Origin: Candidatus Margulisiibacteriota bacterium
Lineage (GTDB): Bacteria; Margulisbacteria; Termititenacia; CAZZFK01
DNA length: 64,000 nucleotides
Reading direction: 5' to 3'
Assembly (NCBI GenBank): GCA_042562495.1
Contig: JBHPMC010000002.1
Coordinates: 12,425-76,424 of the forward strand
Made by a program: the position numbers and the translations under genes. Of the stretch, positions 43,369-61,403 are shown piece after piece (position 1 is the stretch's first letter; each line of letters begins with the position of its first letter). The notes beneath the pieces are model-generated. The model was not told the DNA's origin and made no database searches. It saw nothing but the letters and a program-made list of their open reading frames with translations.

Positions 43369-43384
43369 TGGTGGAGATGAGGGG
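43369..43384 (-). repeat. Copy (15/16) of the tRNA-Ala T-stem-3'half-to-CCA 16-mer, 108 bp downstream of the tRNA
   Basis: Minus strand CCCCTCATCTCCACCA here versus CCCATCATCTCCACCA in the tRNA (43477-43492). Confidence 0.8.
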
Positions 43385-43476
43385 CAATCGTGCAGGTTGC
43401 GCGCTGCATTTCGCCAGGCCGAAAGGTATTCGGCCGGCTCAAGATTTGAACCACTGGTAGTATTGAAGTTTTTCTC
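43385..43476 (-). repeat. Hairpin-rich cassette between tRNA-Ala and its 3'-end copy
   Basis: Hairpins TGCAG/CTGCA (43391-43408) and GGCCGAA/TTCGGCC (43417-43435), plus a T-loop-like GATTTGAAC. Architecture and the GCTGCATT 8-mer are shared with 61180-61276. Confidence 0.5.
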
Positions 43477-43553
43477 TGGTGGAGATGATGGGAGTTGAAC
43501 CCACGACCCCTTGCATGCCATGCAAGTGCTCTAGCCAGCTGAGCTACATCCCC
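43477..43553 (-). tRNA. tRNA-Ala (anticodon GGC), CCA encoded
   Basis: Hand-folded as GGGGATG TA GCTC AGCTGGCTA GAGC A CTTGC ATGGCAT GCAAG GGGTC GTGGG TTCAACT CCCAT CATCTCC ACCA. The G3:U70 alanine identity pair is present. Confidence 0.9.
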
Positions 43554-43623: not shown

Positions 43624-43636
43624 GCTACATCCCCAT
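43624..43636 (-). repeat. 13-nt copy of the tRNA-Ala 5' end (ATGGGGATGTAGC), 81 bp upstream of the tRNA
   Basis: Plus-strand gctacatccccat occurs at 43543-43555 (the tRNA 5' end) and again at 43624-43636. Confidence 0.8.
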
Positions 43637-60833: not shown

Positions 60834-60994
60834 ATTTTACCCCTTTTCTTTTTGTTGATTTAATCGAAAAAAGTGAAGGTATTTTATCATTTTTATGGTA
60901 TTTGTAAAAGTTGAATTATAACTTAATAAATAGTTTGAAAATAACTATAAGTTAGGGATTAGGGCGTAGGGGTAGTTGTTAGTTGTGAGTTATG

Positions 60995-61010
60995 TGGTGG
61001 GACAGGCGAC
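60995..61010 (-). repeat. Degenerate (11/16) third copy of the tRNA-Met 3'-terminal 16-mer
   Basis: TGGTGGGACAGGCGAC here versus TGGTGGGCCAGGTAGG in the tRNA. Confidence 0.35.
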
Positions 61011-61163
61011 GCGCAGCTAGTCCCGCGTAGCTTTAGCGAAGCGGGATAGGTGTTTTGACTTGAAAGATAGTAATCAGGAATATGAAGTCACCTTTGGCGG
61101 CTGGTGCCTATGGGCGGCCGGGGTTGCAATGCTCAATTTCATTTCGCATTGCTTTTATCGGCC

Positions 61164-61179
61164 TGGTGGGCCAGGTAGG
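61164..61179 (-). repeat. Exact 16/16 copy of the tRNA-Met T-stem-3'half-to-CCA segment, 113 bp downstream of the tRNA
   Basis: Plus-strand tggtgggccaggtagg occurs at 61164-61179 and at 61277-61292. The minus strand reads CCTACCTGGCCCACCA. Confidence 0.85.
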
Positions 61180-61276
61180 CAGCAATTTGGTTAATTGCTG
61201 CATTCCGGCCGCTGTGCAGAATGATATCAGCGGCCTCCAGGATCGAACTTGGCTTAAGACGGATTTTGTTGTTTGA
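61180..61276 (-). repeat. Hairpin-rich cassette between tRNA-Met and its 3'-end copy
   Basis: Perfect hairpins GCAGCAATT/AATTGCTGC (61179-61201) and GGCCGCTG/CAGCGGCC (61207-61235), plus a T-loop-like GGATCGAAC. GCTGCATT at 61197-61204 matches 43403-43410. Confidence 0.5.
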
Positions 61277-61352
61277 TGGTGGGCCAGGTAGGGATCGAAC
61301 CTACGACCAATCGGTTATGAGCCGACTGCTCTAACCACTGAGCTACTAGCCC
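61277..61352 (-). tRNA. tRNA-Met (anticodon CAT; elongator type, could be lysidine-modified tRNA-Ile2), CCA encoded
   Basis: Hand-folded as GGGCTAG TA GCTC AGTGGTTA GAGC A GTCGG CTCATAA CCGAT TGGTC GTAGG TTCGATC CCTAC CTGGCCC ACCA. G1:C72 is paired, so it is not an initiator. Confidence 0.85.
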
Positions 61353-61403
61353 AAGCAAATTCAAAATGAATTTTAAAGGAAGTTATGGGAATTGTCCAAG
61401 GGT

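Follow-up and report, generated by a model that had tools for sequence, protein, structure and literature searches.

Downstream of two transfer RNA (tRNA) genes in a 64,000-nucleotide (nt) stretch of contig JBHPMC010000002.1 from a Candidatus Margulisiibacteriota bacterium (the window, meaning that whole stretch) lie two short gene-less cassettes, one behind tRNA-Ala and one behind tRNA-Met, each of which ends in a copy of the 3' end of its host gene. The two cassettes are true relatives, homologous copies of one family (family B), and family B, known from three copies that each follow a different tRNA, is a genuine structured family. We read these elements, at about even confidence, as non-autonomous insertion modules, structured and devoid of genes, whose targets are the ends of tRNA genes, the terminal 16-mer being an insertion-site repeat. 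The assembly that holds the window (G000) comprises 1.30 Mb in 36 contigs (41% GC, 67% complete), and the gene set used from it consists of 27 tRNA genes and the transfer-messenger RNA (tmRNA) gene, 28 in all; the RpoD protein of the lineage has its best match in Candidatus Termititenax (65% identity). Comparisons drew on G001 (100% complete), which alone shares the family (f1) of G000 and belongs to a different genus (here the sister genus), on further genomes of the same class (G002, G003, G004 and G008; class set n=11) and on a complete control genome from another class (G016).

Both host genes encode their CCA ends, and tRNA sense corresponds to the minus strand at both loci; positions such as 61-76 or 52-64 refer to tRNA numbering. 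The tRNA-Ala(GGC) gene (43477..43553, -), host of cassette 1, was identified by ARAGORN and by an Rfam clan match at the same coordinates, and the tRNA-Met(CAT) gene (61277..61352, -), host of cassette 2, by ARAGORN and the Rfam tRNA model (72.4 bits). Cassette 1 occupies 43369..43476 (-) and cassette 2 occupies 61164..61276 (-); they score 118.8 and 125.4 bits with the family-B covariance model R3, and their folds in tRNA sense are more stable than those of dinucleotide shuffles (z of -4.1 for the Ala cassette and -2.95 for the Met cassette). In tRNA sense, cassette 1 consists of a spacer of ~24 nt, a copy of the T-loop region, a hairpin (X), the motif GAAATGCAG with a second hairpin (Y) and a 16-nt tail, and cassette 2 has the same layout. 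The inner T-loop-region copy of cassette 1 (43443..43452, -) is a direct repeat at 90% identity (GGTTCAAATC versus GGTTCAACTC in the tRNA), while that of cassette 2 (61240..61248, -), GTTCGATCC, matches tRNA-Met at 9 of 9 positions (p=0.02 against shuffles). Hairpin X of cassette 1, GGCCGAA-TACCT-TTCGGCC (43417..43435, -), appears in both the minimum free energy (MFE) and centroid folds and as a pattern match, and hairpin X of cassette 2, GGCCGCTG...CAGCGGCC (61207..61235, -), is supported by folding and covariation. Hairpin Y of cassette 1 (43383..43415, -), also supported by folding and covariation, is opened by GAAATGCAG, contains the 8-mer GCTGCATT (43403-43410, +) and overlaps at its base the first 2 nt of the tail; hairpin Y of cassette 2, GGAATGCAGCAATT-AACCA-AATTGCTGC (61174..61206, -), holds the same 8-mer at 61197-61204.

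The tails themselves are copies of tRNA positions 61-76. In cassette 2 the tail CCTACCTGGCCCACCA (61164..61179, -) repeats 61277-61292 exactly (16/16, 100%). In cassette 1 the tail CCCCTCATCTCCACCA (43369..43384, -) repeats 43477-43492 at 94%, matching its own tRNA-Ala at 15 of 16 positions (12 of them contiguous and exact) and the 3' end of the sister-genus tRNA-Ala(GGC) at all 16. The chance of a 12-16-nt terminal copy within 300 nt is, by our arithmetic, ~1e-4 or less per gene. A preliminary description of this DNA had given the cassette lengths as 108 and 113 nt and reported a common order of a T-loop-like GTTCAAATC / GTTCGATCC, a GGCCG-stem hairpin and an GAATGCAGC-opened hairpin, together with the shared 8-mer, which lies 34 and 33 nt from the low end of the respective cassette; all of these points stand. 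Its statement that each cassette closes with a copy of the last 16 nt of the host tRNA is exact for tRNA-Met and needs amending for tRNA-Ala, where the tail has C and the tRNA A at position 64.

With the tails removed, local (Smith-Waterman) alignment of the two interiors falls within chance (p=0.157), and BLAST of one cassette against the other returned no match. Collinear global alignment, by comparison, gave z scores of 3.0-4.0 (p 0.0003-0.004), including against shuffles that keep the composition of 2-6 blocks, and the score of the pair was reached by 0 of ~3000 random genomic 95-mers. Among the 28 tRNA/tmRNA downstream flanks the cassettes are each other's best match, by a margin of at least 10 points. 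The composite GGCCG, 7-22 nt, CGGCC, 0-6 nt, GRAATGCAG has exactly two occurrences in G000 and none in 60 relatives, and counts of the cassette motifs across the genome do not show a dispersed repeat of the repetitive extragenic palindromic (REP) kind. A pattern scan of metagenomes yielded at least 120 matches; none of the 80 inspected lies beside a tRNA tail, all 80 are in DNA of 50-77% GC, one has a tRNA-Tyr 300 nt off, and they were judged to be chance.

A further comparison came from the covariance model, a check that the preliminary description had proposed. R3, built from an alignment (A4) of the Ala and Met cassettes and searched across the class (11 genomes) and the phylum (146 genomes), recovered a third member in the sister genus, at G001:C1:497460-497568 (E=0.0028). 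This member starts at the first base past tRNA-Leu(UAA) and comprises a 24-nt spacer, an inner motif GGTTCAATTCCGG that is an exact 13-nt copy of positions 52-64 of its own tRNA, hairpin X, the motif GGAGTGCAG with hairpin Y, and a tail CCGGCCTTCGGCACCA that is an exact copy of positions 61-76 of its own tRNA. Since the third copy carries its own tRNA's tail, the three form one family whose terminal 16-mer follows the host tRNA, as had been proposed; both a further copy and a similarity beyond chance were thus found. Three weaker matches in the class search, G002:C102 (E 0.014), G000:C8 (E 0.13) and G004:C7 (E 0.64), have no suitable tRNA adjoining and were set aside.

When the Met and Leu members are folded independently by MFE, their hairpins X and Y occupy identical columns of the alignment (17 pairs), and hairpin X of the Met cassette corresponds to that of the G001 member column for column, with compensatory differences. 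Across the three sequences, both partners have changed without loss of pairing in 8 of the 17 pairs; paired cells make up 88%, as compared to 25-49% when the partner strand is slid by 1-3 columns, and shuffles reached the observed pairing values in 0 of 500 cases on four of five measures and in 2 of 500 on the fifth, the structure being tested on three sequences but derived from two of them. Throughout family B the two hairpins are joined by GRARTGCAG, position 61, at the T-loop/T-stem junction, opens the tail (3 of 3 copies), and the inner T-loop copy lies ~57 nt upstream of the tail with hairpins X and Y between. By our count over the seven T-loop bases, no cassette motif fits another tRNA better than its own (6 of 7 for Ala, 7 of 7 for Met and for Leu). 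The view that two unrelated remnants of integrated elements merely resemble one another through their GC-rich hairpins, which the local alignment and the empty BLAST comparison would favor, is therefore hardly credible beside the global alignment scores, the restricted occurrence of the composite pattern, the model-found third member and the covariation.

Other features of the genome bear on whether such cassettes were inserted. Many G000 tRNA genes are directly followed by a conserved hairpin in which the CCA end is paired with a downstream TGG. One form, CCAGCCTTCG-hairpin-TTCGGCTGG, follows Met, two Leu, Pro and Arg genes, with a variant after Asn; it was located at L017 after tRNA-Arg(UCU) and tRNA-Pro(UGG) and on contigs C1, C3 and C5 after Met, Leu and Leu, and its 5-bp hairpin covaries and starts within the tRNA's CCA. 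A second trailer type, CCATGAAGTATTYGC...CTTCATGG, is frequent in G001 and in G000 stands after the tail of the tmRNA cassette. These CCA-pairing trailers suggest that 3'-end processing of tRNAs, or termination, takes an unusual form here. At tRNA-Ala(CGC) and tmRNA of G000 the trailer hairpin stands after the tail of a second kind of cassette (family A, below) and not after the gene, while at tRNA-Ala(CGC) of G001 it directly follows the gene; the family-A element and its tail thus lie between the CCA end and the native trailer, which argues for insertion. Occupancy by family B also differs between the genera, being seen at tRNA-Ala(GGC) and tRNA-Met in G000, both of which are bare in G001, and at tRNA-Leu(UAA) in G001.

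The single mismatch in the Ala tail is likewise informative. The tail CCCCTCATCTCCACCA equals the 3' end of the G001 tRNA-Ala(GGC) exactly, whereas the G000 tRNA now has A at position 64, its T-stem 50:64 pair having changed on both sides. For the family-A tail at tRNA-Ala(CGC), similarly, the match covers 15 of 16 positions with its own tRNA and is complete (16 of 16) with the end of tRNA-Ala(GGC). Because the Ala tail corresponds to the sister-genus allele, the distal copy keeps an older allele while the tRNA itself changed. Such older-allele tails fit a displaced or duplicated gene end and hint at preservation of the tail. The terminal 16-mer, previously said to adapt to the tRNA in front of it, is accordingly better described as duplicating its target.

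Family B is one of at least three cassette families (A, B and E) in the class. Eight of the 28 tRNA/tmRNA genes of G000, namely Ser(CGA), Asn, Ala(CGC), Leu(UAG), Lys(CUU), Ala(GGC), Met and tmRNA, are followed 97-194 nt downstream by a 12-21-nt copy of their own 3' end. The G000 count excludes Pro-AGG, Arg-CCG, Gly-GCC, His and Arg-UCG, where the copies lie inside the next, similar tRNA gene, as well as Ser-UGA (a 10-nt match). A similar scan of other genomes, with a minimum of 11 nt and with windows and offsets that were not uniform, found copies at 4 of 33 tRNAs in G001 (Phe, Arg-CCU, Gln twice, Ser-GGA), to which the model-found Leu(UAA) and Lys(UUU) cases are additional, at 5 of 33 in G003, and at 1 of 35 in the out-of-class control G016. 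Tails of families A and B start at position 61 or 62 and span 15-16 nt (our own alignment).

The four family-A copies of G000 lie at L016:1005-1154 (contig C10), L017:1907-2055 (C10), L018:294-440 (C36) and L019:286-415 (C1) (-), directly after tRNA-Ala(CGC), tRNA-Leu(UAG), tmRNA and tRNA-Ser(CGA), respectively; they measure 130-150 nt, share 76% mean column identity and have no Rfam match. Each consists of three hairpins and then a domain whose closing helix pairs an inner strand with the 13-15-nt copy of the gene end. With a first model (R1) and a second (R2) rebuilt from 10 matches, family A was found in 6 of the 11 class genomes (G000, G001, G002, G003, G004 and G008), and outside the class a 61-genome search gave no more than weak matches (E 0.009-0.02). 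It directly follows tRNA-Ser in G002, G003 and G008, follows a tRNA-Ser 3' fragment in G004, and in G001 stands after Ser and after Lys, there in three tandem copies. Across 10 sequences, in an alignment fitted to the model, compensatory change is seen in 28 of 41 pairs; the share of paired cells is 96%, as compared to 36-47% in slid controls, no shuffle among 500 reached these values, and on the tRNA-sense strand G-U cells outnumber A-C cells by 12 to 3. The closing helix, which rests on covariation, joins the tail to an inner strand of 6-7 nt that is its Watson-Crick complement. That strand has A3 where tRNA-Ala and tmRNA have G3 (GGAGATG versus GGGGATG; GGAGGT versus GGGGGT), so that family A rebuilds the DNA duplex of the gene end and not the 5' strand of the tRNA. 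Arrays of family-A type were noted in G001 at L034:1501-1880 and L067:1576-1780, with three ~119-nt units behind Lys(UUU) and two units behind Gln; every unit closes with the copied tRNA end, and the Gln closing helix also pairs the first two CCA bases.

The window cassettes do not belong to family A, whose models combine hairpins 1-3 with a tail-pairing domain bearing the N-AGTGCC motif: R1, run over the whole window with filters off, gave no match at either cassette at E up to 10. Rfam, likewise searched at E up to 10 over both loci and six other tRNA loci, gave no match inside any cassette. Family E (190-215 nt) occurs behind Lys(CUU) in G000 (L017, G000:C10:18217-18430) and behind Pro, Met and Leu(UAA) in G003 (L318, L331 and L332); its 21-nt tail starts from C56, and its inner strand (GGACTCG, GGATTTG or GGGATTCG) is complementary to the T-loop part of the tail.

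Integration at tRNA ends is seen elsewhere in the clade. At L271:2643-5340 of G004 (contig C32), a reverse transcriptase of 340 aa and a tyrosine integrase of 337 aa lie ~110 nt from a tRNA-Ser 3' fragment. The fragment ends in GCTC rather than GCCA and is followed by a family-A element whose first hairpin is compensated (GCTCCGC/GCGGAGC). The locus looks like an island end at tRNA-Ser, and the presence of these enzymes beside the fragment and the family-A element indicates that tRNA-end integration operates in the clade. Island-type genes (RhuM, Abi_2) also follow the family-A element in G002 and G003, where no third tail copy was found past them over ~1.7 kb to the contig end and over ~11.5 kb, respectively. 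Two candidate origins were rejected: a retro-element origin, as RVT_1 has no match in G000 or in three of five family-A-bearing relatives, and an IS110/bridge-RNA system, as PF01548 is present in none of five genomes. A ParA-like neighbor of the cassettes, used as a query for related loci, found no relative.

Under the reading as insertion modules, the module would dock on the tRNA 3' end, between the intact tRNA (CCA included) and the displaced repeat of positions 61-76. It is this placement of each copy that makes the 16-mer an insertion-site repeat and not an evolved match; the 16-mer would then be an old or duplicated gene end. As the module encodes nothing, it must be moved in trans and seldom, presumably by a recombinase acting at the T-loop/T-stem junction, which is the classic crossover zone of tRNA-targeting integrases. 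Once in place it would be co-transcribed as the tRNA 3' trailer. The insertion chemistry, the enzyme and the action of the hairpins are what we infer from these patterns; given that the hairpins covary, the fold itself would matter, either as trailer RNA or as folded single-stranded DNA.

Several observations weigh against this reading. With three copies known, in 2 of 146 phylum genomes, family B is very sparse for a mobile element. No filled and empty pair at an orthologous site has been shown: tblastn of seven flanking proteins against the G001 tRNA-Met and tRNA-Ala loci found no synteny, and thus no empty-site comparison was available. Pfam searches of 13 flanking open reading frames (ORFs) revealed no recombinase, transposase or reverse transcriptase near either cassette. 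In G000 as a whole there are two PF00589 matches, of Xer-like size (contigs C23 and C11), and no RVT_1, and the complete G001 has two PF00589 and no IS110 matches. The inner T-loop copy is parted from the tail, where a simple integrase model with left and right attachment sites (attL/attR) predicts that the two should abut. Covarying hairpins would be unexpected for plain attachment-site scars and point to a function of the fold. Finally, plain tandem duplication accounts for some of the tail copies in relatives, with a 257-nt unit at G001 Arg(CCU) and a 103-nt unit at G003 Asn.

The last two of these points lead to the principal alternatives. The cassettes could be a structured 3'-trailer RNA that benefits the host, a part of the pre-tRNA that would be cut in the A/U-rich spacer to release a ~85-nt piece (hairpins X and Y behind the T-loop motif, with a 3' end equal to the tRNA's ...NCCA) acting in tRNA end-processing or quality control, for instance as an entry site or decoy for RNase P, 3' exonucleases or the CCA-adding enzyme, or as a sponge; the need for one set of enzymes to read both ends would account for the match between tail and tRNA. 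The sense-strand folding and the covarying hairpins described above agree with such a role, as do the class-wide occurrence of family A with its compensatory pairs and excess of G-U over A-C cells, and the many trailer hairpins that pair CCA with TGG, which suggest an unusual 3'-processing regime. Further in its favor, no promoter or terminator was found between tRNA and cassette at either locus, and a TTTTT run lies past the Ala tail, 10 nt beyond hairpin Y; neither cassette region contains a terminator-like site, and an intrinsic-terminator arrangement (a GC-rich hairpin followed directly by a T-run) is absent from the cassettes. The tail, on the other side, has no partner strand beyond chance: its duplex with the interior is no better than in shuffles (p=0.75 for Ala and 0.30 for Met, a test of low power that family A also fails and that is uninformative because a GC-rich 16-mer finds partners by chance), and the tail contact in the MFE folds of the window cassettes amounts to 4 bp only. 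The acceptor-mimic minihelix that the preliminary description had offered as an alternative is thus not borne out for these two cassettes. No Rfam family, the tRNA model included, matches the window cassettes, the same tRNAs do without cassettes in the sister genus, and the tail includes T-stem bases unneeded by the predicted helices, which together with the old allele speaks for duplication rather than design. Expression support is likewise lacking in public sequencing runs, none of which holds the stretch (best share of its words 0.07). On balance we regard the trailer-RNA explanation as the leading alternative, though less likely than insertion.

The tandem duplications point instead to slippage: the cassettes would be scars of local replication slippage or tandem duplication begun inside the tRNA 3' part and since decayed, their resemblance deriving from a shared ancestral trailer and not from mobility or function. 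Units of tRNA 3' end plus trailer are indeed duplicated in tandem in relatives; at G001 Arg(CCU) the flank after the tail repeats the cassette start over at least 60 nt, and the 103-nt unit at G003 Asn and the arrays at G001 Lys and Gln are comparable. The post-tail flanks in the window, by contrast, do not repeat the cassette starts, and one module stands behind Ala, Met and Leu, each time with the host's own tail and T-loop copy, an outcome that local duplication of one locus cannot yield at three unrelated tRNAs. The repeat also starts at position 61 in all three copies, and their hairpins are kept by compensatory changes, so this explanation seems unlikely to us. More unlikely still, and more speculative, is the idea that the elements are gene-less integron-like cassettes that dock on tRNA gene ends and recombine as folded single strands. 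The hairpins beside the tail, joined in families A and E by an inner strand that is an exact Watson-Crick complement of the tail, would in that case rebuild the duplex of the tRNA gene end, and a host recombinase such as Xer, named here as Xer proteins are the only tyrosine recombinases in the complete G001, would swap the rebuilt duplex with the real gene end. If true, this would explain the own-tRNA tails and the formation of arrays, the A3:T70 pair of family A as against G3:U70 of tRNA-Ala and tmRNA, and the pairing in family E of T-loop bases that are never paired in tRNA.

A few further observations were made around the window loci and other tRNA genes. A copy of positions 1-11 of the tRNA-Ala 5' end, GGGGATGTAGC, lies 81 nt upstream of the gene (43624..43636, -), with a promoter-like site at 43686-43657 upstream of it. 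Copies of tRNA 5' ends starting at +1 were seen 66-140 nt upstream of Ala-GGC (11 nt), Ala-CGC (11 nt) and Asn (13 nt), and further ones at Val (26 nt, with mismatches) and Pro-UGG (18 nt), the loci including L016 (G000:C10:1-1500); a shared motif, CCCTTCGACnnGCTCAG, follows two of the copies. The 5'-end copy is absent at tRNA-Met and at the G001 Leu member and is therefore not a feature of family B. An outer acceptor stem formed by the upstream 5' copy and the tail was considered and dropped, as the 5' copy is present at Ala(GGC), Ala(CGC) and Asn and not at Met or G001 Leu. Past the Met cassette, the ~200 nt of non-coding DNA at 60960-61163 contain GGCCG...CGGCC around a GCAATGC/GCATTGC hairpin and short CCA-ended pieces in tRNA orientation (GGCACCA, GTCCCACCA), possibly decayed remnants of older tails; the family-A model gave a weak match within this region at 60999-61093 (+; E 0.43). 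A 16-nt imperfect inverted repeat (61135-61150 / 61358-61373, 81% complementary) brackets tRNA-Met and its cassette and could reflect leader-trailer pairing or chance in A/T-rich DNA.

The arrangement is reminiscent of genomic islands at tRNA and tmRNA genes, whose ends, according to the Islander account, are marked by a regenerated gene and a displaced fragment (PMC4383910). For tandem ssrA islands of Dehalococcoides, a 20-bp bounding repeat and insertion in the T-loop are reported (PMC3146451). The cassettes share with such islands an intact regenerated gene, an insert and a displaced 3'-end repeat (15/16 and 16/16 here), a repeat that starts in or next to the T-loop, the use of tmRNA as a further target (in G000) and tandem arrays of repeat-ended units. 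They differ in that the inserts measure 108-215 nt and have no gene, integrase or cargo, in that one family serves several tRNAs and the insert consists of conserved covarying hairpins, and in the extra inner T-loop copy of family B with hairpins between copy and tail. In tRNA-targeted islands generally, crossover takes place in the anticodon loop, the T-loop or the 3' end, and identity extends from there to the end of the gene; the family-B identity block opens at position 61, and the additional inner copy is not foreseen by the simple model.

Cis-mobilizable elements (CIMEs), which are non-autonomous derivatives of integrative elements, carry two full attachment sites of a known parent element, and miniature inverted-repeat transposable elements (MITEs) have terminal inverted repeats, short fixed target-site duplications and many dispersed copies. 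The cassettes are like both in being short, non-coding, moved in trans and bounded by target repeats. No parent element is seen here, unlike in CIMEs; as compared to MITEs, there is no inverted repeat joining the cassette ends, only internal hairpins, G000 has two copies, and the repeat is 16 nt of tRNA. Of the earlier designation as an integrative or MITE-like module, the integrative part accordingly agrees with the displaced 3' repeat, while the absence of terminal inverted repeats and of a short fixed target-site duplication, and the presence of two copies, do not suit the MITE-like part. Integron cassettes, whose attC sites recombine as folded single strands, offer a further parallel: stacking behind a fixed docking site, a structured end whose outer part repeats the docking sequence, and structure kept more than sequence, the inner strand and tail of family A forming a perfect gene-end duplex. 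In family B hairpin Y abuts the tail and covaries, and it might act as DNA or as RNA. Unlike integron cassettes, ours have no ORFs and no GTTRRRY/RYYYAAC cores at their ends, their docking site is a tRNA gene end that differs by locus, and there is no IntI, the only candidates in G000 being the two Xer-sized PF00589 proteins, which were classed by size and not by subfamily. Lastly, tRNA-like 3' modules and minihelices are known from viral tRNA-like structures and mascRNA-type RNase P signals. The cassettes resemble these in their ...NCCA 3' end, identical to that of the tRNA, and their T-loop-like motif; they differ in that the window cassettes have no acceptor helix and no Rfam tRNA-clan match and in that the family-A helix has A3:U70 where tRNA-Ala and tmRNA have G3:U70.

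No description of such elements was found in the open-access full-text literature searched, and the cassettes are apparently part of a wider, undescribed set of miniature structured elements on tRNA gene ends in this lineage. Whereas tRNA gene ends are classic landing sites of large mobile islands, the footprint of a large island here bounds gene-less inserts of ~100-200 nt, conserved and covarying, behind different tRNAs and tmRNA. If mobile, they would represent a minimal tRNA-targeted element and offer a handle on target recognition; if they are functional RNAs, this little-studied lineage would mature or guard the 3' ends of its tRNAs in an unusual manner.

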